The notes beneath the pieces are model-generated. The model did not search any database and was not told the origin of the DNA. It was given only the letters and a program-made list of their open reading frames with translations. Both the position numbers and the translations under genes were made by a program. This document shows positions 1,923 through 52,812 of a DNA stretch of 64,000 nucleotides, piece by piece. Position 1 is the first letter of the stretch, and each line of letters begins with the position of its first letter. This stretch comes from Alphaproteobacteria bacterium. Its GTDB lineage: Bacteria > Pseudomonadota > Alphaproteobacteria > Caedimonadales > UBA1908. The DNA lies in NCBI GenBank assembly GCA_021298595.1, contig JAJTHL010000015.1, positions 22,299 to 86,298 of the forward strand, given 5' to 3'.

Positions 1923-3212
1923 CTATAAAGACCACGCTGTTTTAGGGGCGTACCTCTCCTTTAACAGCAGCTCAGTCACCGCCCAAACCAAAGCGTCCAG
2001 ACGATCAGGTGAGGGATCACCCGGTTGGTACTCACACAGTTGACGCTCAAGCTGACCCAGTGACCGCCCCGTGTGAAAAACACGGCCCTGGATATATAGA
2101 TTTGCAACAGGTTCTGCCCGCGTGAGTTTGCCCCGTGTGGCACGGACAGCCTTGTAGGGGATTGTATGATCATGGCTGCGCAGCATCTGCTCGACCAAAT
2201 CTCCCCCCTGATTCACCTCTGCAATGAGGTGGTCCGCCCCGTAGTGATGAAAGGCAGCAATTGCCTTAGTGGCCCACTCGTGGGGTTTGTAGCGGCCACT
2301 GACATCATCAAGAACATAGGCGCGTCCCTGCGCATCTTTGCCCGCAACAATGATCCCGGTCTCGTCGCTATTTTTGTGACTTGTCACCGCTGGATCCACA
2401 GCCACGACCACTCTGACAAGGGCAGGCGGCACTTCTTGATAACACCGACGAAGGGTTGACGCTGTCCATAAGCTGTCTTGAGAGTCCTCCACAAGCTCTC
2501 CGTACAGTTCCTGGGCCCCAAGCCGTGTATGAGCATATCTTTTTTTAATTTCTGTGAGAAAGCTTCCCGATAAGTGCGCGGCATTATCAAAAGTTGATCC
2601 TCTTGTAATTAAAATATCTTTTGTCTTACTTGCCAAAAGATCTTTTATTAGCGGCGTTGGTCTTGGTGTGGTCGTGACAATCACCCGTGGATGAGGTCCT
2701 TTTCTTAAAGAGAACATGAGTTGATCCCAAACCTCTTGAGGTCTTGTACACTTCGCAAGCTCATCCACCCAAGCTGCATCAAACTGTGGACCACGCAGTT
2801 GGGCAGGCCGCTCCCCACTAAAAAGGCTTGCTTTAGCGCCATTTTTCCATATGACAAGACCTCGTGATGGATAGAAGCGGGGGGCTTGGTGAGCGGGATG
2901 AACTTCAAGTAGGCCACTTTCACCTTCTAACATCACACGTCTGACGTCATTTAATGTGTGACCGATCAGGGCGACATGTTTTGCTTGTCCTGACATCACC
3001 CACTCTCTTACGGTTTCCGCTCCTGTTCTTGTTTTTCCAAACCCACGCCCCGCTAGAATGAGCCATACTTTCCAGGGTCCCTCTGGGATCCTCTGATTCG
3101 GCCGGGCGGTCCGGTGCCAGTTGTAGTCTTGCTCTGCCATGCGGCGACGCAAATATTCTTGGCGAATCATTTCTCTTAGTTCTTTTTTTTGACTATCAAA
3201 GTCCATGGTCAT
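1923..3212 (-). CDS. Phage/GTA-type terminase large subunit
   Basis: Intact 429-aa ORF. Walker A-like WLILAGRGFGKTRTGAE, Walker B-like AAWVDELAKC, and a C-terminal RNaseH-like nuclease part (VVAVDPAVT...GIIVAGKD). From memory it resembles RcGTA g2 / Terminase_6 proteins. Confidence 0.75.
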   Translation of the reverse strand: MTMDFDSQKKELREMIRQEYLRRRMAEQDYNWHRTARPNQRIPEGPWKVWLILAGRGFGKTRTGAETVREWVMSGQAKHVALIGHTLNDVRRVMLEGESGLLEVHPAHQAPRFYPSRGLVIWKNGAKASLFSGERPAQLRGPQFDAAWVDELAKCTRPQEVWDQLMFSLRKGPHPRVIVTTTPRPTPLIKDLLASKTKDILITRGSTFDNAAHLSGSFLTEIKKRYAHTRLGAQELYGELVEDSQDSLWTASTLRRCYQEVPPALVRVVVAVDPAVTSHKNSDETGIIVAGKDAQGRAYVLDDVSGRYKPHEWATKAIAAFHHYGADHLIAEVNQGGDLVEQMLRSHDHTIPYKAVRATRGKLTRAEPVANLYIQGRVFHTGRSLGQLERQLCEYQPGDPSPDRLDALVWAVTELLLKERYAPKTAWSL

Positions 3213-3259: not shown

Positions 3260-4239
3260 TTAAGAAGAGGGATGATTTTTTTTTTCAATCTTTTCATCCA
3301 CTGGCACGTAGCCTAACCTTTTCGCTGTCTCATCACCCTCAAGAATCATCCACTTAAAAAGTTGGGTAATCTCTTGACCGCGTGGGTGCTTTTTTTCATA
3401 TAGCCCATAAAAAACCATGATGATTGGCCATTCTGTATCGTGGGCATGCTCGGGGATTTTTTCTTCGTCGAGGGTATGGTGAACAAGTGATTGACTAAAC
3501 ACTTGATATTTTGGTGAGATGAATTTGCTGTCACCATTATCGAGGCTGACCATAAAAAGCGATCCTTTTTTTTGCACTCGCGTAATCTGCGTAGGTAATG
3601 GCTCCCGGGGTACGAGAAAAACGATCCAACAATTCAGCTTTACCCTTGACCCCTTGACCCACTGGCCACTTAACCATAACTTCTGAGCCAATTGTTTGTT
3701 GCCACTGCCTACTTGCTTTGGCCAAATATGACGCAAAGTACTTTGTGCTCCCCGATGAATCTTCTCTATACATCACGGTGATCTCCAAGTTGGGAAGAGT
3801 CTGTGTGGGATTCAGGTCCAAGATTTTTTGGTCGTTCCATTTCGTAACCTTGCCCAAATAAATCTCCGTCAACACGTTTGCAGACAGCTTTAAATCACTC
3901 ACCTGCTTTAAATTCGCCACAACCATGATTCCTGTAAGGGCCATGGGAAACTGGACAACGTGGCTTTTTTGAACTTGGTCTGACGTTAGAGGTAAATCCG
4001 TGACAGCATAATCAAAGTCCCCCTTTTGAAGCTGAATAATCCCCGCACCAGATCCAGATGGTTCGTAGGTAATCTTTAAATCAGAATGCCCCTTGAATTC
4101 TTTGAGCCATTCGTGCATCAAATTCTCAAAGACTCGTGATCCTCCCCCTTTGAGGGTCACACTTCCTTGGCTATGAGAGAAGACCTCTCCCACCATGCAA
4201 AGGAAAAGAAAAAAGGCCCTGCCACATTACTTTTTCCAT
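3260..4239 (-). pseudogene. pstS: Frameshifted phosphate ABC substrate-binding protein PstS
   Basis: Two overlapping frames (3537-4196 and 3260-3736) together read as one PstS: SGSGAGI, GAITYADYASAKK then GSLFMVSLDNG, WPIIMVFYGLY, LGYVPV. The frame changes at a coding-strand A8 run (+ strand T8, 3566-3573). A signal-peptide-like N-terminus from ATG 4239 is out of frame across a T6 run (+ strand A6, 4209-4214). Confidence 0.6.
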
Positions 4240-8737: not shown

Positions 8738-9514
8738 ATGGATATTGTTTCAGAAAAGATTTTTTTTCCCGGAAGTCTTGGACATCTTTTAGCCGCACGC
8801 CTTGATAGGCCCGTTAAAAACCCCCGGTTTTTTGCGGTTTATGGCCCTTGTTTTACGTGCACCAAAGATATTCTGGTCGCCAAACGTATTAGCGAAACTT
8901 TGGCCGCCCTTGGCATTGGCGTTTTGCGTGTCGACTTTACGGGGCTTGGCGAAAGTGCAGGCTCCTTTGCAGAAGCAAACTTTTCCAGTAACGTCGAGGA
9001 CTTACTTGCCGCAAGCGCTTATCTTAAGGCGCATTTTGAGGCGCCACAACTAATGATCGGTCACAGCCTTGGTGGGACGACGTGCCTTGTGGCAACGTCA
9101 AAGTCACCCGACATTAAGGCCGTTGTGAGCATTAACTCGCCGTGCCATCCTAAACACGTGGCCAGGCACTTTCCTGGCCTTGAAGAAGAACTTTCCTGGA
9201 AGGGTGAAGCGGACGTTAAGATCGAAGGACGTGACTTTCGGATTCAAAAACATTTTTTTGATGATCTGCAGGGCCACGACATGAACCAAATTCTCCCCCA
9301 ACTGGGCGCCGCACTTTTAGTATTGCACTCTCCCACGGACACAAGTGTGAACATCAAAAATGCTAGCTATATTTTTTCGACGGCCGCGCACCCAAAAAGC
9401 TTTATCAGCCTTGATCAAATGGATCATTTGGTAACTAAAAAAGACGACGCCCTTTATATTGCAAGACTCATTGACGCTTGGGGCGAGCGATATGTCATGG
9501 CATCAAGATCATAA
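8738..9514 (+). CDS. Alpha/beta hydrolase
   Basis: Start moved to ATG 8738 (MDIVSEK). Motifs CFTCTKD, LRVDFTGLGESAG, nucleophile elbow GHSLGG and C-terminal DH. It resembles the hydrolase half of alpha/beta-hydrolase/OsmC proteins. Confidence 0.75.
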   Translation: MDIVSEKIFFPGSLGHLLAARLDRPVKNPRFFAVYGPCFTCTKDILVAKRISETLAALGIGVLRVDFTGLGESAGSFAEANFSSNVEDLLAASAYLKAHFEAPQLMIGHSLGGTTCLVATSKSPDIKAVVSINSPCHPKHVARHFPGLEEELSWKGEADVKIEGRDFRIQKHFFDDLQGHDMNQILPQLGAALLVLHSPTDTSVNIKNASYIFSTAAHPKSFISLDQMDHLVTKKDDALYIARLIDAWGERYVMASRS

Positions 9515-9688
9515 CCGCTATGGCCTCTTAAGCTAATCAGGAAGAACGTTGTCCTCTAATTTTTTGTGCCCCTGCTTTAACGCATACATTTTTTGATTTT
9601 TTTTACACTTATGTCCACGCGTTGACGTCTTTTTAATTATTTTTAGATAAGATTTACATAAAGACTGTATAAACCATAAAGGGACATC

Positions 9689-10420
9689 ATGCACATGCCA
9701 TCCTCCCTCTCCTCTCTTGAGATTTTTTTGCATGGAAAAATCATGCATGGTGTCATCATTGCGCTGGTGCTGCTTAACGGGGTTTTACTGGGTCTTCTCA
9801 CGGATCATGACATTTCTGCCTCCCACGGCGCCCTCTTGCAAACAATTGATAACGTCATCATCGGTATGTTTGTTCTCGAGCTCTTGATTCGATTTGCTGC
9901 GACCAAAGAACGCTTTTTTAAGCGCGGGTGGAATATCTTCGACACGATTATTATTGCCACCTCTGTGGGGGCTCTTTGGCTAAATTTTCAATCCTTGGAA
10001 ATTATCCGGGTTATGCTTTTATTTCGTATTATTGAATTTAGCCCTGATATGCGCAGGGTCATCGACGCCATTAAGCGGGCCGCCCTTGGAATTATTAATA
10101 CAGGCCTTCTTCTTGGTATCATCTTCTATATTTTTTCTGTGTCGGCGACCTATCTTTATGGAAAGACGGCGCCGGATACTTTTGGCAGCATAGGCACCTC
10201 GCTTTTCACGCTTTTTAGGCTTATGACCTTTGATAACTTAGGCGACATCATGAACCCCATCATGAAGGTGTATCCTTATTCAGGACTTTTCTTTCTTGTC
10301 TTCCTGGCTTTGACGGCCTTTTCTGTTTTGAACCTTTTGATTGGTGTGGTCGTCCAAGCCATGCAGGATGCCACCGACGCCGTTGAGAAAAAAGAAGAAA
10401 AAAAGAAAGGATCAGAGTAG
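9689..10420 (+). CDS. Single-domain voltage-gated-like cation channel (NaChBac/BacNaV family)
   Basis: Six hydrophobic segments. S4-like LEIIRVMLLFRIIEF. Pore helix and filter FTLFRLMTFDNLGD align with NavAb YTLFQVMTLESWSM. S6 is LNLLIGVVV. Confidence 0.7.
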   Translation: MHMPSSLSSLEIFLHGKIMHGVIIALVLLNGVLLGLLTDHDISASHGALLQTIDNVIIGMFVLELLIRFAATKERFFKRGWNIFDTIIIATSVGALWLNFQSLEIIRVMLLFRIIEFSPDMRRVIDAIKRAALGIINTGLLLGIIFYIFSVSATYLYGKTAPDTFGSIGTSLFTLFRLMTFDNLGDIMNPIMKVYPYSGLFFLVFLALTAFSVLNLLIGVVVQAMQDATDAVEKKEEKKKGSE

Positions 10421-10518
10421 CCTGGGTCTTTGCGCGCGAAATGGTCATAAGGTTGTGCACACGGTCCTTTTTTCATCAAAATAATTGATTTTTTGACCGT
10501 TTTTGACTAGTATGATAA

Positions 10519-10684
10519 GTGGTGCTGCGGCATTACGTCAGGGCGATTTTCCCTGGGGCCGATACTCATCCTTAAGGGAGCTGTCCCTGCCATGACTTGC
10601 GGGTTATGGTATATGGCGCCCACCTGCATTTGCGGGCCACGTGAGGATATAATCATCCAACGATTGCTGCGGCCCACTTTTTTG
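10519..10684 (+). ncRNA. ssrS: Candidate 6S RNA
   Basis: About 160 nt, non-coding, directly upstream of and co-oriented with the 5-formyl-THF cyclo-ligase gene (the classical ssrS-ygfA synteny). The 5' GTGGTGCTGCGGCA pairs with the 3' TGCTGCGGCCCAC (13 bp, one bulge). Internal partial pairing gives an imperfect rod, and a T6 run follows. Confidence 0.55.
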
Positions 10685-10693
10685 GAGTGATCT

Positions 10694-11275
10694 TTGACCA
10701 AGGAAGGTTTACGGCGACTTCTGCGCCAACGGCGTGCTCATTTTGTGAGCACCTGCACAGCCGATGAACTAGACTGTCTTTCTTTACAGCAGGCAGCCCT
10801 TTTTGAGCGCACTTTTCCCTTGGAAGATTCTTGTGTGATTGCAGGGTACTGGCCCCTTTCCAACGAATGTGACCCGACGCCTTTGTTGCAGTGTCTTGCG
10901 CGTAGCCATAAAAATGTTGTCCTTCCCCGCATTGAAAGAAATCATCTGATTTTTGTGCCGTGGGCCCCAAGTGCGCGCCTTGAACCCGGCCCCCTTGGTA
11001 CCTCGCAGCCCACGGCCAAAGCACCGATTCTTATGCCCGACTACATCATTACACCCCTTGTGGCCTTTGACAAAAAAGGCGCGCGCCTGGGACAAGGTGG
11101 CGGGTTTTACGATCGCACGTTTCACCGTTTTGCAAAGCAAACATACGCCTTCACCGTCGTTGGTTATGCCTTTGACTGTCAATACGTTGACTTTATCCCC
11201 CAAGACACGCAAGACTATCCCTTGGATTATGTTATCACCCCAACAACCCTTTACGATTTTAGAAACGGACAATAG
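10694..11275 (+). CDS. ygfA: 5-formyltetrahydrofolate cyclo-ligase
   Basis: 193 aa. Motifs LGQGGGFYDRTF and DYPLDYVITP are characteristic of MTHFS. TTG start as in the ORF track. Confidence 0.8.
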   Translation: MTKEGLRRLLRQRRAHFVSTCTADELDCLSLQQAALFERTFPLEDSCVIAGYWPLSNECDPTPLLQCLARSHKNVVLPRIERNHLIFVPWAPSARLEPGPLGTSQPTAKAPILMPDYIITPLVAFDKKGARLGQGGGFYDRTFHRFAKQTYAFTVVGYAFDCQYVDFIPQDTQDYPLDYVITPTTLYDFRNGQ

Positions 11276-12124
11276 ATGCGCCTTTTATATTGCGGAGATG
11301 TGGTGGGACGGCCTGGACGAGAAGTGGTTCAAAAACTTATCCCTCTGCTCATTCAACATTGGGCTCTCGACTGGGTCGTTGTGAACGCCGAAAACGCCGC
11401 ATCTGGATTTGGGGTTACTCCTCAAATTTGTGATGATCTTTTTGCTTTAGGGGTAGACATTATTGTGTGCGGCAATCATACATGGGATCAAAAGGACATC
11501 ATCCCTTACATCGCCAAACAGCCGCGTCTTATTCGCCCCCTGAACTATCCTGAAGGCACGCCAGGAAATGGTTTATGTGTCCTGTCTAAACCCACCTGTC
11601 GCGGGCAATTGGTCGTTGCCCAACTCATGGGTCGTCTTTTTATGGAACCTTTGGATGATCCTTTTGTTGCCATCGAAAAAGCCCTGCAACCTTACCGTTT
11701 ATCCCATCCATCCATTGGCGCCATCTTGGTGGATGTCCATGGCGAGGCCACCAGCGAGAAGATGGCCCTCGGCCACGTTCTTGATGGGCGGGTCACGGCG
11801 GTGATTGGAACCCACACTCATGTCCCCACGGCCGACTGCCAGCTTTTACCAAAAGGAACCGCTTATCAAAGCGATGCGGGGATGTGCGGGGATTATGACT
11901 CGGTAATCGGCATGGAAAAAGAAGCGGCCATCGCGCGCTTTAAAAAAAGGATTCCTACCCCGCGTCTTTCCCCTGCCCTAGGGGAAGCATCTTTGTGTGG
12001 AACGTTTCTGGACATAGATGACACAACAGGATTTGCCAGATCCATTCATCCTGTCCGTCTTTTAGGCCGTCTGTCTTCGTCTATTCCTCCGGGTCTTTCA
12101 AGTAATTTTCTTTCACTTGCATAA
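11276..12124 (+). CDS. YmdB-family metallophosphoesterase (TIGR00282-like)
   Basis: MRLLYCGDVVGRPGR, VVNAENAASGFG, GNHTWD and DVHGEATSEK motifs. Its ATG immediately follows the upstream stop. Confidence 0.8.
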   Translation: MRLLYCGDVVGRPGREVVQKLIPLLIQHWALDWVVVNAENAASGFGVTPQICDDLFALGVDIIVCGNHTWDQKDIIPYIAKQPRLIRPLNYPEGTPGNGLCVLSKPTCRGQLVVAQLMGRLFMEPLDDPFVAIEKALQPYRLSHPSIGAILVDVHGEATSEKMALGHVLDGRVTAVIGTHTHVPTADCQLLPKGTAYQSDAGMCGDYDSVIGMEKEAAIARFKKRIPTPRLSPALGEASLCGTFLDIDDTTGFARSIHPVRLLGRLSSSIPPGLSSNFLSLA

Positions 12125-12385
12125 GTAAAGATAAACACCTTTAAACATGGGAGTGGGAAAAACCTTTATGAAATTAAAAAAATTCCTAAAAATTTTTAAT
12201 TATTACAAATAATAAAGTGTATTTCTTTACTTAAATGACACAAATATCGATGTTTCAAAAATTCAAAATTAAATACTAATTAATAATTATAAGCGTCTAA
12301 TATTTATATATTTTTGTTGACACAGACTCATAATTTTGGCTTGATATTTCTTGTGAAAAAGAAAATAAACAACAGGAGAGAGTAC

Positions 12386-12451
12386 ATGACCAAGGTTAAC
12401 CTTGAAAAAAGAATGCCCGGACAAGAGCGTAGCGTCGCCATCACAGCCTAA
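12386..12451 (+). CDS. 21-codon mini-ORF (MTKVNLEKRMPGQERSVAITA): leader/precursor candidate or frameshift artefact
   Basis: This ATG has the best Shine-Dalgarno of the locus (AGGAGAGAG, about 6 nt upstream). It stops 10 nt before an in-frame GTG of the next gene. Alternatively, deleting one A from the A6 run (12405-12410) fuses this ATG to the SagB-like frame. Confidence 0.25.
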   Translation: MTKVNLEKRMPGQERSVAITA

Positions 12452-13544
12452 GCCGCTTTATGTGAATCCTTATCTCTTCCTTCACAGTGTGGGGGAAGAG
12501 ATTTGTGTGTGGGATTACTTTCACCATCAACAGTTTATTCTTGATGCTCCCCATCTTGATCGTCTGATTGCACACCTAACGTCTCCGCCCCTTTCATCTT
12601 CGCCTTTGGACAATATTTTCTTAGAAGAAGGTATTCTTTCTGAAACGCCCTTTCCTCGTCATCAGTGGGGTTGGGATCTTCTTGGGCAAATTTATCATTT
12701 TGGCACAAGAGATCTTGACGAACCTGAACAAAGATCCACACTCGCGCGTGCCACTGATTTTCTGAATGCCTGTAGCGCCTTTGAGAAAAGACAGTTGCAA
12801 ACAGGGACGCCTGATCCTTTCATCGGACTCCCCCGCATCGATTTACCAGATTGGCGTTCAGATCACTTTGATTTGAATCTGGGCAAAGCCCTTGAGGCAC
12901 GGATGACCAGTCGCGTCTTTAATGGCGAATCTATCTCTCTTCATGACTTAAGTGCGTGCCTTGGCATGACCTTTGCCCAAAAAGAAAACCCCTGGCCAGA
13001 AGCAGATATCCACAAAGTAACCTTTCTTGGCAAGCGGCGCACAAGCCCGTCTGCAGGGGGGCTTCATTCTGTCATCCCTTATATTGTCGCCTTTCACGTT
13101 GAAGGGCTTGCGCCTGGCCTATATGGCTATGATGACGTGTCCCATCAACTTGTCTTGAGGGCGAGCTACACAGCAGCCGAACTTGACACCCACGTCACAA
13201 GACTCTGCGGCGACCAGTTTTTTGGAGAGAATGCTGCGTGCGGCATCTTTTTTGTGTCACGTCTTGATCAAGTATGGACCAAATATCCTCACTCTCGTGC
13301 CTACCGGGATGTGTTTCTTGATGGCGGCCACCTGTCGCAAACGCTTCTTCTTTTAGCCACATCCCTTGAGTGGAATACCTGGATCACCGCTTACTTTCGT
13401 GATACAGAACTCGTGTCTTTTTTGCACTTACGGTCTGATGCGGATTTACCTCTTTTGTACGTTGCCCTTGGCAAAGGTGACCGCCAAGCCCTTCATCCGA
13501 GTGTTCTAGAGGCTTTGCGTCTGCGTCAAAAGGAGTCTACTTAG
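12402..13544 (+). CDS. SagB/ThcOx-type (nitroreductase-fold) dehydrogenase with N-terminal extra domain
   Basis: The C-terminal ~210 aa carry the SagB-type pattern: ARMTSRVF, RRTSPSAGGLHS, GLYGYD, YRDVFLDGGHLSQTLLL, LYVALGKG. The N-terminal ~150 aa (VWDYFHHQQFILD...WGWDLLGQIYHFGTRD) are an additional domain. The start is ambiguous: TTG 12402, GTG 12462, or ATG 12386 after a 1-nt correction. Confidence 0.7.
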   Translation: MKKECPDKSVASPSQPKPLYVNPYLFLHSVGEEICVWDYFHHQQFILDAPHLDRLIAHLTSPPLSSSPLDNIFLEEGILSETPFPRHQWGWDLLGQIYHFGTRDLDEPEQRSTLARATDFLNACSAFEKRQLQTGTPDPFIGLPRIDLPDWRSDHFDLNLGKALEARMTSRVFNGESISLHDLSACLGMTFAQKENPWPEADIHKVTFLGKRRTSPSAGGLHSVIPYIVAFHVEGLAPGLYGYDDVSHQLVLRASYTAAELDTHVTRLCGDQFFGENAACGIFFVSRLDQVWTKYPHSRAYRDVFLDGGHLSQTLLLLATSLEWNTWITAYFRDTELVSFLHLRSDADLPLLYVALGKGDRQALHPSVLEALRLRQKEST

Positions 13545-14972
13545 ATGTCTTTGTCTCAGTCCCGTGATTTTTGGTGGGCATGCGTTTTAAACTTTTTAGA
13601 GCGTTTCTCCTTCTACGGCGTTGTCTCCATTTTAGTGCTTTCCATGGTGGATCACGGTCTTTCCGACTGGAAGTCTTATATGGTTTATGGTGTATTTACG
13701 ACCCTTTGCTATTTGATGCCCATGTTAGGAGGCATGCTTAGCGACCACAAATTGGGTGAGCCCTGGACCATTCTTTGGGGCTTTTTTCTACAAATCATCT
13801 CGTGTTTTCTTTTAACGTTTTATACTGGTTGGGGAATGTGCCTCTGGACCGGTCTTGGGTTTATGGCGCTATCTGTGGGATTCATCAAACCAAGCCTTGT
13901 GTCGCTTGCTGGGCGCAGTTTTGATGACACGCCGCACGAAAAAGAATCTGCTTATACTATTTACTATGTTTTTCAGAATATTGGCGCACTTTTGGCGCCC
14001 TTTTTGTGCGGGACTCTCGGTCAAGTCTGGGGGTGGGAGCAGGGGTATATGACAGCCGGTTTTCTTTCAGTTGCAGGGTTTTTATGCTGTTTGTTTCGTT
14101 CTTTTTCCAAACGCTCTCTCTTTCATCTTGCCTATACCCATACAAAACTTTTGATTAGTTGTGGGTATATGGTGATGGTGCTGCCTCTTTTATGGCTCAT
14201 CAAAGAATCTCTTTGGAGTCGCGATCTTTTGACGATTTTATGCGTGGGTGTGCTCATTTGTTTTTTCACCTATGTGATGATTCAGAGAATTTTTAATCTC
14301 CAAACAGTTGTTGTTCTTTTTGCAGGCACTTTGGCCATTGCCATCTCAGGCGCCCTCATTGGACACGGCGCCGATGCCATCAGCCTTTTTGCCAAAAGGA
14401 ATGTGCACCTTTTCCTGGGCAATTTTGAAATCCTTCCTGTTCATTTTCAGATGATTAATCCCGTTGTGATTATCATTTTTGGGGCTTTGATGTCTTTTTT
14501 GTGGCGCGCGCTTTCAAAGGGCGGCATCACACTGAACGCTTTTATCAAATATATTCTTGGGTTTCTTGTGATTGCTGGGGCTTTCTTTTTACTAAAACAC
14601 GTGTGCGCTGATCACATGGAAGGCCTTGTTTCTCCCCTATGGGTGATGGTCGCCCTTGGCATTTCGGCCTTTTCAGATTTGCTTATTTTTCCGGTTGCGC
14701 TGTCTGAATGTTCGCGTGTCAGCCCTGAAAAGTGGCGCGCCCAAACCATGGGTCTTATGGTTTTTGCCATGGCCTTTTCCCAACTTATTGGCAGTTATCT
14801 CGCCCAACTGGCAGCCCTACCAGGCCCACTTCCGCCCCAAGAGAGCCTGCCCATTTATGAGTGGTTTTTCACAAACCTTGGATGGTATGCTTTAGGGGTG
14901 ATCCCATTGTTTGTACTAAGCCTAGGCGCTGTCAAATTCATCACAAAAGAAACGCACGGGCAAAGAGAATAG
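13545..14972 (+). CDS. POT/PTR2-family proton-dependent oligopeptide transporter
   Basis: Signature FLERFSFYG (ExxERFxYYG) and LGGMLSDHKLGEPWTI (GGxxxDxxxG..TI). It is multi-TM, and its ATG abuts the upstream stop (TAGATG). Confidence 0.75.
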   Translation: MSLSQSRDFWWACVLNFLERFSFYGVVSILVLSMVDHGLSDWKSYMVYGVFTTLCYLMPMLGGMLSDHKLGEPWTILWGFFLQIISCFLLTFYTGWGMCLWTGLGFMALSVGFIKPSLVSLAGRSFDDTPHEKESAYTIYYVFQNIGALLAPFLCGTLGQVWGWEQGYMTAGFLSVAGFLCCLFRSFSKRSLFHLAYTHTKLLISCGYMVMVLPLLWLIKESLWSRDLLTILCVGVLICFFTYVMIQRIFNLQTVVVLFAGTLAIAISGALIGHGADAISLFAKRNVHLFLGNFEILPVHFQMINPVVIIIFGALMSFLWRALSKGGITLNAFIKYILGFLVIAGAFFLLKHVCADHMEGLVSPLWVMVALGISAFSDLLIFPVALSECSRVSPEKWRAQTMGLMVFAMAFSQLIGSYLAQLAALPGPLPPQESLPIYEWFFTNLGWYALGVIPLFVLSLGAVKFITKETHGQRE

Positions 14973-14982
14973 GATTTTTACG

Positions 14983-15849
14983 ATGGACTTAAGCAAACTA
15001 AGAGTTTTTTATCACGTGGCAAAATGTCGCGGGGTGAGCGCTGCCGCCAGGGGCCTAGAGCTTAAGCAGTCCGCCATCAGCCAAAGCATTAAAGCTCTTG
15101 AAGAGGATTTAGGGTGCCGCCTTTTTCACCGTCATGCGCGGGGGATGACCCTGACAGAAGAGGGTGATATCCTCTTCAAAGCCGCAAGGGAAGCATTCTC
15201 CCATATTGAAGTCGCAGAGAACATTATGCGAGAACGCAGCGGCCTTTACCAAGAGAGCATCACCATTGGCACCACCGTTGGGCTTGCGGCCACCTATGTA
15301 CCGAGCAGAGTCGTTGGATACTGCCAAACTTACCCAGACGCCCCTGTTCGCATTGTGGAAATGCACACCCATGATATCGACAATAGCGCGGCCGATGTGT
15401 TTATTTGTCCGTATATCTTTGATAAGCCTGAACTTGTCCAAACTCCCATTGAACGTTTTCCTTTTAAACTATGTGCAGCCCCCTCCTATATAGAAAAACA
15501 CGGCCGGCCTCAAACATTTCAAGAACTAAGCCAGCACACACTGATTGCCTTTCCTGAAGACTCTCATAATCCTTTTAATCGGGTAGACCGTCTGCTGTTT
15601 CAAGATGAAGACAGCTCCCAGCAGCTACGCCGTCCCTTGATCGAGACGTTTACTTCCACAAGTCTTATGTATCTTGTGTCATCCGGTGTGGGGATCGGCG
15701 TTTTATCCACCAAGATGCCAGGCGCGGATGCCCTCATAGACCTTTTCCCAGACCTGCCAGCCATGGAAATCGAAATATATTTTGTCGTGCCAAAACGCCT
15801 TGCCCATATTGAACGGTTTGAGCGCCTTAAGCAGGCTTTCCTCAAGTAA
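14983..15849 (+). CDS. LysR-family transcriptional regulator
   Basis: N-terminal wHTH LRVFYHVAKCRGVSAAARGLELKQSAISQSIKALEEDLGCRLFHR, followed by a LysR substrate-binding region. It starts 10 nt after the transporter stop. Confidence 0.85.
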   Translation: MDLSKLRVFYHVAKCRGVSAAARGLELKQSAISQSIKALEEDLGCRLFHRHARGMTLTEEGDILFKAAREAFSHIEVAENIMRERSGLYQESITIGTTVGLAATYVPSRVVGYCQTYPDAPVRIVEMHTHDIDNSAADVFICPYIFDKPELVQTPIERFPFKLCAAPSYIEKHGRPQTFQELSQHTLIAFPEDSHNPFNRVDRLLFQDEDSSQQLRRPLIETFTSTSLMYLVSSGVGIGVLSTKMPGADALIDLFPDLPAMEIEIYFVVPKRLAHIERFERLKQAFLK

Positions 15850-16436: not shown

Positions 16437-18227
16437 ATGCGTTTTTTCATGAGACCCGTGATTTTGTTTGTCTACCTTCTTTCCACACCGGCACTTTGTC
16501 TTGCAAGCCTTAACGGGGATCAAAATGACGGCCCAGAATCAAAAACACCGTCAGGTTTGTTAAGATCCGTGAGCGCTGCGCCTCTTCCCGAAGAGTTAAC
16601 AGCGCTGCCCGCCACCTCTCAATCTTCTCTAGGGGTAATGGGCGGGATCAAACTGTTTTTTACAAGCCTTTTTGAACCGTTCATTGATGATCAAGCGCAG
16701 GCTTTTTACCATACACAATTGGAGGCTATGCAACATCAAGGGGTTTTGGGATATGGGAAAGACCTTGTGATGACCCAAGCACAGTGGGCCAAAGACCATC
16801 CCATGGACGCGGTCCTGGATACGGTGAGTTTATCCGGTGCCGTTATTCTTGGTCACACCAATATTGCAGCCACCTATCCTCAGCTTTTAACGGCTTACCA
16901 AACCCTCGGGATCGCAAGACCTGTTGCGGCCGTTTTTAATGATCTTCCCTCGCAGGACGCTCGCAAATGGCTGCCACGCTTGTTGGAAGCAAGCGCCTAT
17001 TCGGTCACCCTTTATCTAGTCTCACAACTCCCCATGGGGGCTGAGGCTGCTTCTTTTAATAGTTACGCAGACGCAAGACGTACTTATAGCGGGTATGGGT
17101 GTCCCATTGATCAACAAATTGTTTCAGATGCAACCGATGTGGGACGCTGCTTGGCAGAGCCTGGAAGCACATTGGAAATATGCCAAACAAGACTGCCAAA
17201 CTATCCAGGACTTGAAAAAGATCTCTATGTTTTTACACGCCACCCGCATGTCACAAACCCCTCCCTTGATCCCGTCTCCGTGACACGTCTTGATTTGAAT
17301 CAGACCTGTATCCAGTCTGCTCTTAGCCCTAATACTCCTGTTACACAAATTTGCTATAAAGGGGAACTTATCCCAACGTCAGCCTTCAAAGTCACGCGCC
17401 TTAATGACCTGACGTTAAGTCAGGGGCATGAAGGGTTAGAATCTGGTGAAAGCGCACGGCACCTTGGCATTCGTCATGGCGGTTATGGATGTGGTCTTTT
17501 TAATAAAGCGCAAACCACCTATGACCTAGGGAAACAACCCCTTTGTTTTAAAAGTGCCACAGAAACAGGGGGGCCTGTGACTCAACTTTGTGTTGACCCA
17601 GCAAGACCAGAAGTGATGACGGTAAAGGAAGTACCTGCAGACACCTCCCTGATCTTTCCCGATGACGGCTCTCCTGCATTTCGGGTGATTATTCCAAGCC
17701 GCAAAAGTGGGATTGATATCCACCCCGATGACGGAAGAGCGCCGACGGTGCAGCTTCCGATTTTTGATCCCCTAACACAATGCGCATTAAATGGTACTCG
17801 TCCATACCACGAAGTTTGCATGGCTCTTCCTGATAGCAATGTCCGCGCCCTTCCTTTGAACAACCATGGGACGACCAGCGCGGTTTTAACCTTTGATCCT
17901 TTGACACAATGCGCGTTAAATGGCACTCGTCCACACCACGAAGTTTGTCCAGCTCTTTCAGACGTCGCCCCCTCCCTTCCTTTAAACAGCCATGGGGCAG
18001 ACGACTCTTTGACACAGTTTGGTCTGAGTGACGCACCGAATCTTGACACTGAGGAAGCAAGGACGCCGTCATCATTTTCTGACGCTGATCCCGAGGAGTT
18101 TGAGGACGAATTCGATTTAATCCAAGAGCTCTCGTCCCTTGCAACGCAAACAGCAAACCGATTTCAAGCCATTTACACTAAGTGGTCACACAGGAAGTGG
18201 TGGTTTCAGCGTCAAAAAACTCTCTAA
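16437..18227 (+). CDS. Secreted Cys-pair repeat protein (hypothetical)
   Basis: Signal peptide MRFFMRPVILFVYLLSTPALCLA. Repeated modules each carry two or three Cys (YGCP...C...C, LNQTC...ICY, YGCG...C...LC, PLTQC...VC x2). Acidic C-terminus DADPEEFEDEFD. Confidence 0.5.
   Translation: MRFFMRPVILFVYLLSTPALCLASLNGDQNDGPESKTPSGLLRSVSAAPLPEELTALPATSQSSLGVMGGIKLFFTSLFEPFIDDQAQAFYHTQLEAMQHQGVLGYGKDLVMTQAQWAKDHPMDAVLDTVSLSGAVILGHTNIAATYPQLLTAYQTLGIARPVAAVFNDLPSQDARKWLPRLLEASAYSVTLYLVSQLPMGAEAASFNSYADARRTYSGYGCPIDQQIVSDATDVGRCLAEPGSTLEICQTRLPNYPGLEKDLYVFTRHPHVTNPSLDPVSVTRLDLNQTCIQSALSPNTPVTQICYKGELIPTSAFKVTRLNDLTLSQGHEGLESGESARHLGIRHGGYGCGLFNKAQTTYDLGKQPLCFKSATETGGPVTQLCVDPARPEVMTVKEVPADTSLIFPDDGSPAFRVIIPSRKSGIDIHPDDGRAPTVQLPIFDPLTQCALNGTRPYHEVCMALPDSNVRALPLNNHGTTSAVLTFDPLTQCALNGTRPHHEVCPALSDVAPSLPLNSHGADDSLTQFGLSDAPNLDTEEARTPSSFSDADPEEFEDEFDLIQELSSLATQTANRFQAIYTKWSHRKWWFQRQKTL
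17763..17997 (+). repeat. Tandem in-frame duplication, period 129 bp (43 aa)
   Basis: FDPLTQCALNGTRP(Y/H)HEVC...LPLN(N/S)HG occurs twice, starting at 17763 and 17892. The 5' half of each unit shows high nucleotide identity. Confidence 0.8.
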
Positions 18228-18274: not shown

Positions 18275-18441
18275 AGTCTTATCATCACATCTATACATCC
18301 TTAACCGGATTTCAGGATAAAGCTTGACGCCTTTTTGCACGTATTTTTTTGACAAAAGGGCATTGCTTTTTTTGTCAAAAATACCTATACCCATGGGACT
18401 ATGCTGTTCTTTTATTGTTTTTTGCCTTTAGAAAGTGCCCC

Positions 18442-19845
18442 ATGAAGAAAATTAACCTGTTGTTAAAATTAAATAATTTCGCAGCTTATTTTTTGTTTTC
18501 ATTGGCGCTAGGACCCCTGGTCCAGGCTTCGCTCTTTAACCAGAGCGACGAGTTGACATTAACGCAGCCGCTTACGCTCCCAAAACCCGCACTCCCTAGC
18601 GAGTCCCCTGTGATGCATGCTTCTTCAAGTGCCGGTCAATTTGATGAGTATGGCCCTCAAAGGGAGCGATACAAAAAGCCACGTCTTGGTAAAAAGCATA
18701 AATCTCTCTTAATGCAGGAAAATACAGAAGAGGGGGACGACTCTGAATCATCGATGTCTTCCTTGGACGCCGCGACAGGCTCTTCCTCTAGCTCACAAGA
18801 TGAAGAGAATATACCCGTTGATTTTAATCTCGCTTCACTGCCGACCTTCTCTCCTCTTCGCCCGCAACCCGTTACATGCTTTAGCCCTTTCACGCCAAAA
18901 ACCCTTAGTGATTTCAAAAGAAAGCGCATAGATCCCGAAACTTATAAAGAAGCCGTTCTTTGCCTTTTTCAGTCTCCCCAACGCAGGCCTTTGTCTATAC
19001 CTCACACGTTGCCAACTGTGCGCAATGAGAAAATACAACAAGCCCTTTTGCAAAAAAAATTCTTTTATCAGCAAGCCCTCATCGAGGCTGGAAATGGCCA
19101 CAAGTTACGCAGCCAAACACCCTCGGATATCGTGGTTCACGGAAAGAGACGCCCAGCCCATGTTTTGACCCATCAGGTGAGCGTCGTGCAAGAGCCTCGC
19201 GAAACCCGCGAAGCGCGCATCGCCCGTGAGAAACAACAAACAAAGCTTATAAAGCAGGCGCGACAGCACCAGTTTGCCCTTACGAATCCCGACGCGGTCT
19301 CCAAGGAGAGCGCACAAATTTCCCTGTACATTTGCTATTTATCTTTGCGAAAGCAAAAAGTGGACCCCGACAACTTGCGAGACACCCTCATTCGCAAAGC
19401 AGAAATTGAAGACGTTGTAGACGACTTATTCAAAGATGAAAACGCCCCAGATCTTGAGGAAAACCAAGCGACCTATTGGCGGCTTGAGATTTCTGGCTAC
19501 GTTATTTTCATGCCGACATTTTTTGATTACACGACTAAGGATGCCTTCACAGGAGAAAGTGGATTAGACAGAATGAGACGTTTTCTTGCGCCCTTTGATC
19601 CCCATGGTGACTCGACCCACCTTCATCATGCGACCCTTTACGATAAGAAAACACATCATACGACCAGCTATTTAATCGCCATGAGTCACGCAGAGCACGA
19701 ATCTCATCATAGCGGGCTCCATTTTACAGACACCCATTACTGGATGCCAAAAGCCCCGGTGGACAGAAACCTCTTTGGGCACGCCAAAAAAGAAATCTAT
19801 CCTGCTGTGGCTGATTTTATCGAAAAGCGTCTGTCCCACCAATAG
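18442..19845 (+). CDS. Secreted protein with C-terminal HNH/EndoVII-like (LHH-type) putative nuclease domain
   Basis: Start set to ATG 18442 (MKKINLLLKL..., with signal-like FAAYFLFSLALGPLVQA). Ser/Asp/Glu-rich tract and basic clusters (KKPRLGKKHK, FKRKRID). The C-terminus DSTHLHHATLYDKK..SYLIAMSHAEHESHHSG resembles the sHH...H...H beta-beta-alpha-metal motif of LHH/WHH toxin nucleases. Confidence 0.4.
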   Translation: MKKINLLLKLNNFAAYFLFSLALGPLVQASLFNQSDELTLTQPLTLPKPALPSESPVMHASSSAGQFDEYGPQRERYKKPRLGKKHKSLLMQENTEEGDDSESSMSSLDAATGSSSSSQDEENIPVDFNLASLPTFSPLRPQPVTCFSPFTPKTLSDFKRKRIDPETYKEAVLCLFQSPQRRPLSIPHTLPTVRNEKIQQALLQKKFFYQQALIEAGNGHKLRSQTPSDIVVHGKRRPAHVLTHQVSVVQEPRETREARIAREKQQTKLIKQARQHQFALTNPDAVSKESAQISLYICYLSLRKQKVDPDNLRDTLIRKAEIEDVVDDLFKDENAPDLEENQATYWRLEISGYVIFMPTFFDYTTKDAFTGESGLDRMRRFLAPFDPHGDSTHLHHATLYDKKTHHTTSYLIAMSHAEHESHHSGLHFTDTHYWMPKAPVDRNLFGHAKKEIYPAVADFIEKRLSHQ

Positions 19846-19850
19846 GGTGC

Positions 19851-20420
19851 CTATTGAACAAAAAGCCTCAACTGATCTTTTACAAAGTCAGTAAGCGATG
19901 GCCATGACTCAGGCTGACCCGTGACTCCAGCCCGGTAAACACAATAAACGCCTTTCGTGTGACGGTCGTAGCAATAGTGGGCAAGCGTGTCTGGCACTTC
20001 CATCAAGGGGGTCAAGTGTCCAAAAGATTGCTGAGGTTTTTCGCACAAAGCGCTTTTTTGCCCCCTGTAAAAGGCACGCCAAATAGCGGGATAGCGCCCT
20101 TTCGGGTGAGCTAGCTCCACAATCTCCCATCGAAGATGCGCGCATTCTTTGAAAAAATCCTTGACCACTTCTGGCAACATGCAAGGTAGCGTTTTTTCCA
20201 AATTCGTAAGATCTTCATCGCTCACTAAGGGAATGCCATCCGGGTATGTGGACGTTTTCAAATGAGGGACTTTGTCGAGCAGCTGCCCGAGCGCCTGATC
20301 TGTGCGTAAGCCCACAGAAGGGAACCGAGAGAGTTTCTCTTCTTCTTGGCTTGCAAATACAACGTTAACGGTGAAGAGCATTCCTATCATGAGAACGCGT
20401 GCTATCCATATATTTTGCAT
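19851..20420 (-). CDS. SUKH/SMI1-KNR4-like protein (putative immunity protein) with N-terminal signal/anchor
   Basis: DEDLTNLEKTLPCMLPEVVKDFFKE (the i..lE..lg..LP..yk.f pattern). The C-terminal part is HYCYDRHTKGVYCVY...ESWPSLTDFVKDQL. The N-terminal hydrophobic segment is IARVLMIGMLFTVNVVFA. It is convergent with the putative nuclease gene, 5 nt stop-to-stop. Confidence 0.4.
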   Translation of the reverse strand: MQNIWIARVLMIGMLFTVNVVFASQEEEKLSRFPSVGLRTDQALGQLLDKVPHLKTSTYPDGIPLVSDEDLTNLEKTLPCMLPEVVKDFFKECAHLRWEIVELAHPKGRYPAIWRAFYRGQKSALCEKPQQSFGHLTPLMEVPDTLAHYCYDRHTKGVYCVYRAGVTGQPESWPSLTDFVKDQLRLFVQ

Positions 20421-51306: not shown

Positions 51307-52812
51307 ATGGATCAAACATCCCACCCAGAAATGGATCTTTCAGGGGAAAAAGAAAATATTTTCAGAGCCTCACGCCTGGCAAAGCTGGACGCCATCAAAG
51401 CTATGGGCATAAATCCCTACCCTTCGTCTTTTGAGCGATCCCATAATCTGGAGACCCTTCAACACGATTTTTTCGAGCTTGAATCGGGCGCAGAGACCGA
51501 GACAGTCGCCCGCGTGGCGGGACGTATTCGCGCCATTCGTAACAGCGGGATGTTCATTGACCTTCACGACAGCACCGGCAAGCTTCAGTTGTTTTGCCAT
51601 AAGGACGTTATGGGCGAAGTGGCGCTAACCCTCATCAAGCAACTAGATGTGGGAGACATCATTGGCGCCGCGGGCCTTATTCGCCGCACCACCAGGGGCG
51701 AGCTGACCCTGAACGTCAAAGAGATTTCTCTTTTGTCCAAAGCGCTTCTTCCCCTTCCTGAAAAATACCATGGCCTCAGCGACGTCGAGACCAGATACCG
51801 TCAGCGGTATCTTGATCTCATCATGAATGAAGATAGTCGGGCGACCTTGCGCGCGCGCAGCCAAATTATTTCCGCCATGCGCCGCTATTTAACGGACGAA
51901 GGATTCCTTGAGGTTGAAACACCCATGCTGCAAACCATTGCAGGGGGTGCTGCAGCAAGGCCTTTTATCACCCATCACAACGCCCTTGATCTTGATTTGT
52001 ATCTGCGTATTGCGCCCGAGCTTTACCTCAAGCGGTTGATTGTGGGCGGACTTTCCGACAAGCTTTTTGAAATTAACAGAAACTTCAGAAATGAAGGGGT
52101 GTCCACACGTCACAACCCTGAATTCACCATGATCGAGCTTTACCAAGCATACGGTGATGCCAGCACCATGATTGAGCTCACCCAAACCATGATTTCTCAT
52201 ATTGCGATGACCCTCTTTGATACCACAAGCTTTGAGTATGCTGGTAAAACTCTTCACTTTGCAAAGCCTTGGCGCGCTGTCTCCATGCTGGACGCCGTAC
52301 GTGAAGTGACGGGCCTTGACCTTGGTCAACTGGACGCGGCCGCTGCTGCCGAGGCCGTTAAAACCCTTGGCATCACTATTAAAAAGGGCGCTCTGTGGGG
52401 AGAAATCGTCGAAACTGCCTTTGCCGAAAAGGTCGAAGAAACCCTGATTCAGCCAACCTTTGTAACGGAATTTCCTTTGGATATTTCACCGCTTGCCAAA
52501 CCTCACCCCACAAACCCTCGTCTAACGGAGCGTTTTGAGGTCTTTGTGAACGGAATCGAGCTTGCCAACGGCTTTTCAGAGCTCAGCGATCCCATTGATC
52601 AGCGCGCGCGCTTCGAGGCGCAAGTGGACGCGAAAAACAAAGGAAACGATGAAGCCCACGCCATGGATGAGGATTTCATCACGGCCCTAGAGTACGCCAT
52701 GCCCCCAACCGGCGGCCTTGGGATTGGCATCGACCGCTTGGTCATGTTCCTCACGGGTGCCCCCAGCATTCGGGACGTCATCGCCTTTCCCACCATGAAA
52801 CCAAAAGACTAA
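51307..52812 (+). CDS. lysS: Lysyl-tRNA synthetase, class II
   Basis: OB-fold N domain (VAGRIRAIRNSGMFIDLHDSTGKLQ). Class II motifs FLEVETPML, FRNEG.S.RHNPEFTMIE, GGLGIGIDRLVM. Confidence 0.95.
   Translation: MDQTSHPEMDLSGEKENIFRASRLAKLDAIKAMGINPYPSSFERSHNLETLQHDFFELESGAETETVARVAGRIRAIRNSGMFIDLHDSTGKLQLFCHKDVMGEVALTLIKQLDVGDIIGAAGLIRRTTRGELTLNVKEISLLSKALLPLPEKYHGLSDVETRYRQRYLDLIMNEDSRATLRARSQIISAMRRYLTDEGFLEVETPMLQTIAGGAAARPFITHHNALDLDLYLRIAPELYLKRLIVGGLSDKLFEINRNFRNEGVSTRHNPEFTMIELYQAYGDASTMIELTQTMISHIAMTLFDTTSFEYAGKTLHFAKPWRAVSMLDAVREVTGLDLGQLDAAAAAEAVKTLGITIKKGALWGEIVETAFAEKVEETLIQPTFVTEFPLDISPLAKPHPTNPRLTERFEVFVNGIELANGFSELSDPIDQRARFEAQVDAKNKGNDEAHAMDEDFITALEYAMPPTGGLGIGIDRLVMFLTGAPSIRDVIAFPTMKPKD

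Follow-up and report, generated by a model that had tools for sequence, protein, structure and literature searches.

A divergent, POT-linked member of a candidate new family resembling systems for ribosomally synthesised peptides with post-translational modifications (RiPPs), with an overlooked putative precursor gene

The four-gene unit and its mini-ORF

The analysis concerned a 64,000-nt stretch of an alphaproteobacterial genome (assembly GCA_021298595.1, contig JAJTHL010000015.1, positions 22,299 to 86,298; hereafter the window), in which positions 12386-15849 hold four genes on the same (+) strand: a mini-open reading frame (mini-ORF), a gene for a SagB/ThcOx-type enzyme, a POT transporter gene and a LysR regulator gene. 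An earlier annotation made from the letters alone (the sequence-only reading) had described four tightly packed, co-directional frames with a TAGATG junction and a 10-nt gap, and the open reading frames (ORFs) bore this out. The following features were located.

12317-12385, + strand: conserved 5′ block, comprising a TTGACA -35-like hexamer (12317-12322), a TTTTGGCTTGAT.TTTCTTGTGAAAA stretch and an AGGAGA Shine-Dalgarno sequence
12386-12451, + strand: mini-ORF, ATG at 12386, stop at 12449-12451, 21 codons, encoding MTKVNLEKRMPGQERSVAITA
12402-13544, + strand: SagB-like enzyme gene, 380 aa counted from a TTG start, stop TAG
12472-12502, + strand: stem-loop, ATCTCTTCCTTCACA / TGTGGGGGAAGAGAT followed by a T-rich stretch, with a stem of 14-15 bp
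13545-14972, + strand: POT/PTR2-family oligopeptide:proton symporter, 475 aa, its ATG abutting the TAG stop of the enzyme gene
14983-15849, + strand: LysR-type regulator, 288 aa, starting 10 nt past the POT stop

The AGGAGA sequence ended 6 nt 5′ of the mini-ORF ATG, and the mini-ORF shared 50 nt, in a different reading frame, with the start of the enzyme gene as called from TTG. The TAG-ATG junction and the 10-nt gap point to one transcription and translation unit. When the locus was aligned with ortholog locus L005 (87% identical), the block 12317-12385 was near-invariant and the preceding 200 nt were divergent; the sequence 5′ of the mini-ORF is thus not the uniform AT-rich leader for which it had been taken. 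This block is a putative promoter, and a consensus promoter scan did not list it. No riboswitch was found by Rfam in the leader of the window. The nearest public genome was the metagenome-assembled genome Alphaproteobacteria bacterium MCMED-G24, with an enzyme 87% identical to that of the window and an identical gene order.

The peptide encoded by the mini-ORF begins with M-T-K-V-x-L-E, which is the motif of a family described below, and contains no Cys, one Ser and two Thr. Eight substitutions separated the mini-ORF from that of ortholog L001 (88% identical); six were at third codon positions of the mini-ORF, and five of those six were synonymous. Five of the L001 substitutions fell inside the overlapping enzyme frame, and there all five were non-synonymous. 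The same pattern was observed in L005. These substitutions point to purifying selection on the mini-ORF frame.

One genome per species was scanned, and 281 loci were found to encode full-length relatives of the enzyme. The best 80 of these were examined, giving 81 loci with the window. In 64 of these 81, an ORF of 20-58 codons with a Shine-Dalgarno sequence before it lay within approximately 200 nt 5′ of the enzyme gene. The 59 distinct peptides encoded typically started with M-K-K-[I/V]-x-[L/I]-E: position 1 was M in 59/59, position 2 was K in 43/59, position 4 was I or V in 55/59, position 6 was L or I in 54/59, and position 7 was E in 55/59. Of the 417 small ORFs in the 450-nt windows upstream, 57 carried the strict motif, against 6 of the 24,286 small ORFs located elsewhere in these loci (approximately 640-fold enrichment; Fisher P = 1e-95). 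A similar ORF was also found upstream of distant homologs in Neobacillus fumarioli (MKKIQLESKNFCALLPVIVRK) and Variovorax ureilyticus (MKKIQIESSLQCQSNNAYQVHFIRG). The mini-ORF had been passed over as incidental; the selection on its frame and the family motif upstream of the enzyme in 64 of the 81 loci argue otherwise.

Mini-ORF peptides were largely missing from protein collections. Nine of ten were absent from 15 billion predicted proteins, the tenth (a double unit) being labelled "hypothetical protein", and six peptides searched against NCBIfam gave no match at E ≤ 10. At two loci (L047 and L059), the whole peptide unit, including the leader, was present twice in one ORF. The best-defined block was L-S-X-Q-S-N-D-A-Y, in the class of peptides named here after Q-S-N-D-A-Y, and within it only X varied (Y, F, H, N, C or S). 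This pattern was seen approximately 60-200 nt 5′ of the enzyme gene in L040, L049, L052, L065, L072 and about 20 further loci.

The enzyme and its N-terminal domain

The sequence-only reading had placed a SagB-type pattern in the C-terminal half of the enzyme, and the domain searches agreed. PF00881 scored 47.2 bits (cutoff 23.5) over residues 165-358, TIGR03605 (SagB family) scored 82.2 bits, a narrow margin over its cutoff of 78.4, and the PSAGG, GLYGYD and LDGGHLSQ motifs were all present in the translation. The SagB/ThcOx-type flavin mononucleotide (FMN) dehydrogenase domain occupied residues ~145-358. When a profile of 21 full-length homologs was searched against the PDB, the best match was 3eo7 (E = 1e-44), followed by ThcOx (5lq4 and 8pz5; 4e-24); BmdC and McbC ranked next, and generic nitroreductases were much weaker. 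The AlphaFold2 model of the enzyme (predicted local distance difference test score, pLDDT, 78) gave ThcOx (5lq4) as the top Foldseek match (E = 4e-16, approximately 395 alignment columns). Residues K294-Y295, located inside the family-invariant block W-x-K-Y-P-H-S-R-A-Y-R, aligned with the Lys-Tyr pair of ThcOx and BmdC, a pair required for azoline oxidation in the dehydrogenases of thiazole/oxazole-modified microcins (TOMMs). On the basis of the two rankings and the K294-Y295 alignment, the enzyme is of the SagB/ThcOx type and not an ordinary nitroreductase, its nearest relatives of known structure being 3eo7 and ThcOx. FMN binding and dehydrogenase activity are predicted from the sequence.

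The true start of the enzyme is uncertain. Its homologs start at about residue 19 of the TTG-called ORF, so the first ~18 codons represent an unconserved extension overlapping the mini-ORF. TTG 12402 appears to be the only conserved start codon 5′ of the conserved first strand; GTG 12462 was rejected as an alternative because both orthologs have GTA at this position.

The N-terminal domain (residues ~19-140) was specific to this enzyme family. Eight of its residues were invariant (W37, Y39, H42, Q44, W89, W91, D92 and H99), and no sequence match to it was found in Pfam or the PDB. Its profile matched only 180 clusters (at 50% identity) among 1.84 billion representative proteins. All full-length matches were 341-380 aa long (about 355) and carried the domain at the extreme N-terminus; they share one architecture and therefore constitute a compact family. 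The AlphaFold2 topology was beta-beta-beta-alpha-alpha-alpha, the element order of the PqqD-like fold of RiPP recognition elements (beta3-alpha3), with a pLDDT of 75 for the domain modelled alone. Among the top 15 Foldseek matches, 14 were RiPP proteins containing a RiPP recognition element (RRE), at E = 0.09-0.7 and TM-scores of ~0.3, which are weak values. The top matches included TbiB1 with its leader, McbB, lasso B1, ThcOx, CteB and PbtF, and also the peptide clamp of MccB. The RRE-like nature of the extra domain, suggested in the sequence-only reading, is thus supported by the predicted topology and by the identity of the matches but is not proven.

Transporters, neighbouring genes and partner enzymes

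The POT protein scored 105.2 bits with PF00854 (cutoff 27) and 154.7 bits with TIGR00924 (cutoff 130); the DtpA, DtpB and DtpD equivalog models remained far below their cutoffs. The LysR protein matched PF00126 (77 bits) and then PF03466 (77 bits), and no equivalog model reached its cutoff. The family assignments made earlier for both proteins therefore stand.

POT and LysR were syntenic in the orthologs, and the exact linkage was found only in near-identical orthologs. In Legionellales, locus L030 has a POT gene of the same BLAST cluster, placed two genes beyond a distant member of the enzyme family, and LysR genes flanked the Holosporales members L010, L013 and L085. The proposed POT and LysR linkage thus held among near-identical orthologs and did not extend to the whole family, in which POT (L030) and LysR (near Holosporales members) occurred separately. 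Because L030 and the window lie in different enzyme clades, POT was recruited at least twice. Most loci had a small-molecule transporter beside the enzyme, generally among the one or two genes after it, belonging to the MFS (major facilitator superfamily), POT, AzlCD, EamA or Vut_1 type; the pairing conserved across the family is that of the enzyme with some small-molecule transporter.

The first-helix signature of the window POT (13545-13650) reads N-F-L-E-R-F-S-F-Y, and that of L030 reads S-M-W-E-R-Y-A-F-Y. The canonical POT motif is E-x-x-E-R-F-x-Y-Y. Both signatures seem to be without the first Glu of this motif.

In a neighbor-joining tree of 77 enzymes, the clades coincided with peptide classes and operon types. 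The window and L005 formed a long isolated branch with at most 38% identity to all other members. The peptide classes, the genes that follow the enzyme and the organisms or loci concerned are listed below.

M-K-K-I-x-L-E-P-x-L-S-X-Q-S-N-D-A-Y plus a variable tail: carbamoyltransferase and MFS transporter, in some cases a TPR-methyltransferase; Burkholderiales, Yersinia, Photorhabdus and some Pseudomonas
...L-E-S-x-x-L-A-N-[L/W]...: AurF-like di-iron oxygenase and MFS transporter, then GNAT (Cupriavidus, Pandoraea) or ilvD (Pseudomonas)
hydrophobic core plus basic tail: Vut_1 transporter, alpha/beta-hydrolase and KASIII; L017, L020 and L057
MKKIQLESKNFCALLPVIVRK: AzlC and AzlD; Neobacillus
MIKVSREITESYKSYRCPHIWKK: uncharacterised 441-aa protein, then POT; Legionellales L030
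MKKVVKEITESVLDTRCIAIIKK: the same uncharacterised protein as in L030, then an ATP-grasp L-amino-acid ligase; L019
MKQVVLESSYSSYGVFVGVR: tryptophan-halogenase-like enzyme; Mycoavidus

The co-variation of peptide, enzyme and neighbours and the duplication of the peptide unit are expected of a substrate gene and not of a generic leader ORF.

Several of the accompanying genes were located individually. The ilvD gene (dihydroxy-acid dehydratase, 613 aa) directly followed the operon of peptide, enzyme, AurF-like oxygenase and MFS transporter in many Pseudomonas, approximately 2.5-3.5 kb 3′ of the enzyme (L021, L024, L026, L029, L031, L032, L038, L044 and L068). The ATP-grasp L-amino-acid ligase of L019 (10407-11696, + strand) has a LAL_C2 domain. 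A tryptophan-halogenase-like flavoenzyme is encoded at 9293-10786 (+ strand) of L041, and an ABC-F protein at 12017-13681 (+ strand) of L072; with the ligase, they are candidate tailoring or resistance genes of sister operons. The conserved protein of ~441-447 aa, which had no Pfam match, lies between enzyme and POT in L030 (1410-2735) and between enzyme and ligase in L019 (9137-10480, + strand); it may be a tailoring enzyme or a protease.

The scanned ORFs of the window contained no domain of the YcaO, ThiF/E1, LanB/C or radical-SAM type; the scan took in every ORF of 150 aa or more at 1-32.5 kb apart from 3260-3736 (158 aa, on the minus strand and overlapping 3537-4196) and, from 33 to 64 kb, 10 of the 16 ORFs that reach 230 aa. 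Three YcaO proteins, together with a leader-binding protein of TOMM systems, were also used as phmmer queries, a search of limited sensitivity, and matched nothing in the six-frame translations of the window and of 86 related and comparison loci. These results agree with the earlier statement that no YcaO or other RiPP partner enzyme lies nearby. By contrast, in a canonical rhizobial TOMM cluster the SagB gene was accompanied by three YcaO genes, and leader binding was assigned to a separate protein. A second nitroreductase-fold gene was found neither among the scanned window ORFs nor in related operons.

The unit is flanked by ordinary chromosomal genes: an ion channel, 6S RNA, 5-formyl-THF cyclo-ligase and a YmdB homologue on the 5′ side, and an NDUFS4-like gene on the 3′ side, a setting in keeping with an alphaproteobacterium. 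The 6S RNA (10519-10679, + strand; Rfam RF00013, 57.4 bits, gathering score 46.4) stands directly 5′ of the 5-formyltetrahydrofolate cyclo-ligase gene (10694-11275), which is the classic ssrS-ygfA arrangement. Farther downstream, the 596-aa product of 16437-18227 (+ strand) starts with what resembles a signal peptide, matches nothing in Pfam and carries ...FDPLTQCALNGTRP[Y/H]HEVC... twice as an internal tandem repeat. The protein encoded at 18349-19845 (+ strand; 498 aa), the C-terminus of which weakly matches LHH (HNH/EndoVII-type nuclease), adjoins a SUKH_5 (SMI1/KNR4) protein on the opposite strand (19851-20420, - strand). These two proteins look like a polymorphic toxin/immunity pair, and they are syntenic in the ortholog contig. 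A terminase large subunit gene (Terminase_6N and Terminase_6C; 1923-3212, - strand) lies amid housekeeping genes, is also present in the ortholog contig and may be a gene-transfer-agent or prophage remnant.

Interpretation, alternatives and known systems

The reading that we favour, and consider somewhat probable, is that the window operon is a minimal, YcaO-independent, RiPP-like system in which the mini-ORF peptide is bound and oxidised by an RRE-fused flavoenzyme that POT and LysR serve. The substrate would be the 21-residue product of the mini-ORF, whose role as a precursor is suggested by its sequence and position. The N-terminal M-x-K-[I/V]-x-L-E segment would dock on the RRE-like domain, and the FMN domain would dehydrogenate at least one residue of the peptide's C-terminal portion. 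General cellular peptidases probably trim the product to a small fragment, which the POT protein would carry over the inner membrane, most simply by export. The LysR protein would control the operon, and the relative amounts of precursor and enzyme transcript probably depend on the hairpin that follows the mini-ORF. We suspect a product of amino-acid or dipeptide size because of the small-molecule carriers, the dipeptide-forming ligase in one sister operon and the GNAT gene in several. The sequence-only reading had proposed as substrate a small peptide, or a metabolite resembling one, that the POT protein would import or export; the peptide substrate and the link with the transporter are retained here, whereas the evidence points to the product of the mini-ORF as the substrate. 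The window operon is accordingly presented as a divergent, POT-linked member of a candidate new RiPP-like family with an overlooked precursor gene.

Several observations weigh against this proposal. A recognisable mini-ORF was lacking in 17 of the 81 loci, 14 of them from two clades near the window: nine Caedibacter/Paracaedibacter/Odyssella loci, and four Finniella-like loci together with Odyssella L037 (the other three were L015, L027 and L063). Odyssella accounts for four of the copies without a mini-ORF, and two full-length plasmid copies of Paracaedimonas acanthamoebae also lacked it. No mini-ORF was found upstream, downstream or elsewhere in the Holosporales loci, nor on the two Paracaedimonas plasmids. 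Since these loci keep the enzyme, it may not always need an adjacent peptide gene; either the peptide is encoded elsewhere, or the enzyme acts there on something else. The window lineage comprised only two sequence clusters in 5.8 billion proteins, so that the conservation of the window peptide rests on three near-identical sequences, and this peptide has none of the motifs that mark the classes in the large clades. Transporters of the POT family normally work as importers. The Foldseek support for an RRE is statistically weak (E = 0.09-0.7), and transcription attenuators, too, consist of a short ORF with a hairpin behind it. Both the chemistry and the product are predictions. RRE-like domains fused to azoline dehydrogenases have been described as possibly vestigial (RRE-Finder paper, PMC7470986); the strong conservation of the N-terminal domain argues against a vestigial RRE in the present family.

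Other observations were made at the loci without a mini-ORF. A conserved "GTPSAGTNQIRL" translation upstream of the Finniella-like loci was rejected as a candidate peptide, as it falls on the thiamine pyrophosphate (TPP) riboswitch of a divergent gene. The TPP riboswitches are on the - strand of the intergenic region 5′ of the enzyme genes (L022, 1668-1779; L023, 7758-7875; L025, 7755-7864; L028, 1733-1844) and belong to a gene of ~440 aa on the strand opposite to the Finniella-like enzyme gene. Paralogs of the enzyme were present in amoeba endosymbionts: Odyssella thessalonicensis L13 has them on four scaffolds (L010, L011, L014 and L037), and Paracaedimonas acanthamoebae has them on the chromosome and on two mobilizable plasmids (L008, L085 and L086). 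At the plasmid locus L085, an EamA transporter gene lies directly 5′ of the enzyme gene and a divergent LysR gene lies downstream.

The loci that keep the enzyme without a mini-ORF are the main support for a different explanation, close to the proposal of the sequence-only reading, according to which the substrate is a small peptide or peptide-like metabolite that the mini-ORF does not encode: POT would import it, LysR would sense it and the flavoenzyme would oxidise it, so that the genes would serve catabolism or detoxification. Proton-driven import is typical of POT proteins and LysR proteins commonly regulate catabolic operons, all transporters linked to the family are small-molecule carriers, and in the nearest clades (Holosporales) some of the loci without a mini-ORF keep EamA or LysR beside the enzyme. 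We nevertheless consider this explanation unlikely. The mini-ORF is under purifying selection and its family motif recurs in 64 of the 81 loci; the peptide class co-varies with the enzyme clade; the predicted fold of the N-terminal domain resembles that of peptide-recognition domains; and the GNAT and tailoring genes of the sister clades point to production rather than catabolism.

The hairpin bears on a second alternative, in which the mini-ORF is a regulatory leader peptide that, together with the hairpin, attenuates the expression of enzyme and transporter and is not a substrate. The window stem-loop begins 21 nt 3′ of the mini-ORF stop, inside the first conserved codons of the enzyme, and is identical in L001 and L005; its best 45-nt fold has a folding free energy (dG) of -20.4 kcal/mol. 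Folds of dG ≤ -12 were found downstream of the mini-ORF in 57 of 64 loci, compared with 25 of 64 upstream, and the mean best 45-nt fold over the 64 loci was -21.1 kcal/mol downstream vs. -11.1 upstream (Wilcoxon test, P = 2e-11). Stem sequences differed between clades, so it is the structure and its position that are conserved. Several hairpins, among them those of L042, L053, L072 and L074, ended in T-runs, and the window mini-ORF overlaps the start codon of the enzyme, as attenuation would also have it. A hairpin after the precursor gene is, however, also usual in RiPP operons such as mccA. The hairpin fits control of the precursor/enzyme transcript ratio and an attenuator alike, and therefore does not discriminate between them; many hairpins, moreover, had no T-run. 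What makes attenuation improbable is that conservation resides at the N-terminus of the peptide and in the class motifs, not in a C-terminal stall site or in runs of regulatory codons, that these motifs track the tailoring enzymes, and that complete units are duplicated in single ORFs.

It is very improbable that POT and LysR are adjacent by chance, as neighbouring housekeeping genes uncoupled from the enzyme. The exact four-gene order was found only in two near-identical lineages and the surroundings are housekeeping genes, as such an explanation would have it. Against it stand the TAG-ATG junction and the 10-nt gap, the independent POT gene in the operon of L030, the recurrence of LysR beside Holosporales members and the presence of some transporter next to the enzyme in most loci. 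Hardly credible is a canonical azoline oxidase of a TOMM or linear azol(in)e-containing peptide (LAP) pathway with YcaO and substrate encoded elsewhere in the genome: the TIGR03605 cutoff was reached, the Lys-Tyr motif is kept and the genome search covered the 64-kb window, but no YcaO was found in that window or in the 86 loci while the rhizobial TOMM cluster has three, the enzyme clade is set apart by a fixed architecture and by a particular peptide encoded upstream, and the window peptide contains no Cys and only three Ser/Thr.

Beyond the favoured reading of the window operon, we put forward a broader one tentatively, with the balance of judgement somewhat against it: the family as a whole would be an unrecognised RiPP class, with a precursor of 20-30 residues, a 7-residue handle, one RRE-fused SagB-like enzyme, no YcaO and a small product, yielding Trojan-horse antimetabolites. 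Under this proposal, an amino-acid- or dipeptide-sized product would be handled by POT, MFS, AzlCD, EamA or Vut_1 carriers, and the class would be one enriched in endosymbionts of amoebae and fungi and in bacteria associated with plants and insects.

If a precursor role for the mini-ORF is correct, approximately 280 sequenced species carry an unannotated core of peptide and flavoenzyme that makes small molecules, including Pseudomonas, Cupriavidus, Pandoraea, Paraburkholderia, Yersinia, Photorhabdus, the fungal endosymbionts Glomeribacter and Mycoavidus, and amoeba symbionts. Standard genome mining would see only an orphan "SagB/ThcOx family dehydrogenase" in them, nine of the ten mini-ORF peptides looked up being absent from the collection of 15 billion predicted proteins. 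SagB-type enzymes could then form the core of a pathway without azoline formation, and a wider chemistry would be expected of the superfamily. The tailoring genes of the sister clades (carbamoyltransferase, AurF-like oxygenase, halogenase, amino-acid ligase and GNAT) suggest bioactive, possibly antibiotic, products. With one 21-mer and one enzyme, the system is compact and tractable.

The literature searched, whose coverage was incomplete, contained no description of this peptide-enzyme family, in keeping with the earlier remark that the gene combination is not a described system. ThcOx, McbC and SagB azoline dehydrogenases share the catalytic fold and the aligned Lys-Tyr pair with the window enzyme, and ThcOx also has N-terminal RRE-like domains. 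TOMM/LAP dehydrogenases oxidise azolines made by a YcaO of the same cluster and act on precursors with a core rich in Cys, Ser or Thr; the window peptide has no such core, and with no YcaO found, the operon lacks the feature that defines TOMM/LAP systems. The N-terminal domain is strongly conserved here, whereas its counterparts in canonical dehydrogenases have been called possibly vestigial (PMC7470986). The best NCBIfam model for the C-terminal domain, TIGR04511 (SagB_rel_DH_2, putative peptide maturation dehydrogenase), scored 121.4 bits without reaching its cutoff of 240 and aligned only with the C-terminal domain (model positions 163-367). Its members, which belong to Xanthomonadaceae and Myxococcota, are uncharacterised SagB relatives associated with a short peptide; they covered only 46-67% of the enzyme, at 30-37% identity, and have a different N-terminal domain. 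Pantocin A (PaaP/PaaABC) and microcin C combine a very short precursor, one or a few enzymes that carry a peptide clamp or RRE, a hairpin after the precursor and an MFS-type carrier. They share the logic of this layout with the window operon, but rely on ThiF-like adenylation instead of an FMN dehydrogenase, and have no sequence relationship to it. A Pseudomonas Os17 cluster (PMC7726476) was considered and set aside as another kind of system, in which the SagB-domain protein measures 650 aa and the precursor 85 aa.

The nearest described system is that of the tiarins and trifolitoxin (TfxA precursor with TfxB and TfxC; Travin et al., bioRxiv 10.64898/2025.12.02.691738). There, TfxB and TfxC, two FMN dehydrogenases with an RRE, modify the region around a conserved Gln in a short precursor, and the residue before this Gln sets the aminoacyl-tRNA synthetase that is targeted (bioRxiv 10.64898/2025.12.02.691738). 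Tiarin clusters were defined by a TfxB and TfxC pair within 2.7 kb, and stand-alone SagB homologs are mentioned only as an outgroup (same source). Like the window with its putative precursor and RRE-like domain, the tiarin systems have a short precursor just upstream, a strong Shine-Dalgarno sequence and SagB-type FMN enzymes with an RRE of their own, and the defining modification is YcaO-independent in some clusters. The tiarin leader motif is rich in aliphatic and acidic residues near the N-terminus, and K-[I/V]-x-L-E of the window family bears a suggestive likeness to it at the level of the motif. In contrast, a single enzyme takes the place of the TfxB/TfxC pair here, and its N-terminal domain is a distinct family without a sequence match elsewhere; the contrast with TfxB and TfxC is drawn from their published description. 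The GNAT of the tiarin system has a known role in self-immunity; no GNAT gene is present in the window operon, and one was found only in some Cupriavidus and Pandoraea sister clusters. No aminoacyl-tRNA synthetase gene was found beside the Q-S-N-D-A-Y loci that were checked, and the lysyl-tRNA synthetase gene of the window (51307-52812) lies 35 kb from the operon, amid housekeeping genes. Gln13, which recalls the conserved Gln of tiarin cores, is present in the window peptide and in 23 of 26 Q-S-N-D-A-Y peptides, whereas peptides of the A-N-L/W class lack Gln. In the Q-S-N-D-A-Y class, the variable residue at position 12, which precedes it, is reminiscent of the residue that determines specificity in tiarins. 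By analogy, Gln13 and the preceding residue (G in the window) could encode Trojan-horse antimetabolites, the targets of which may be readable from the peptide.

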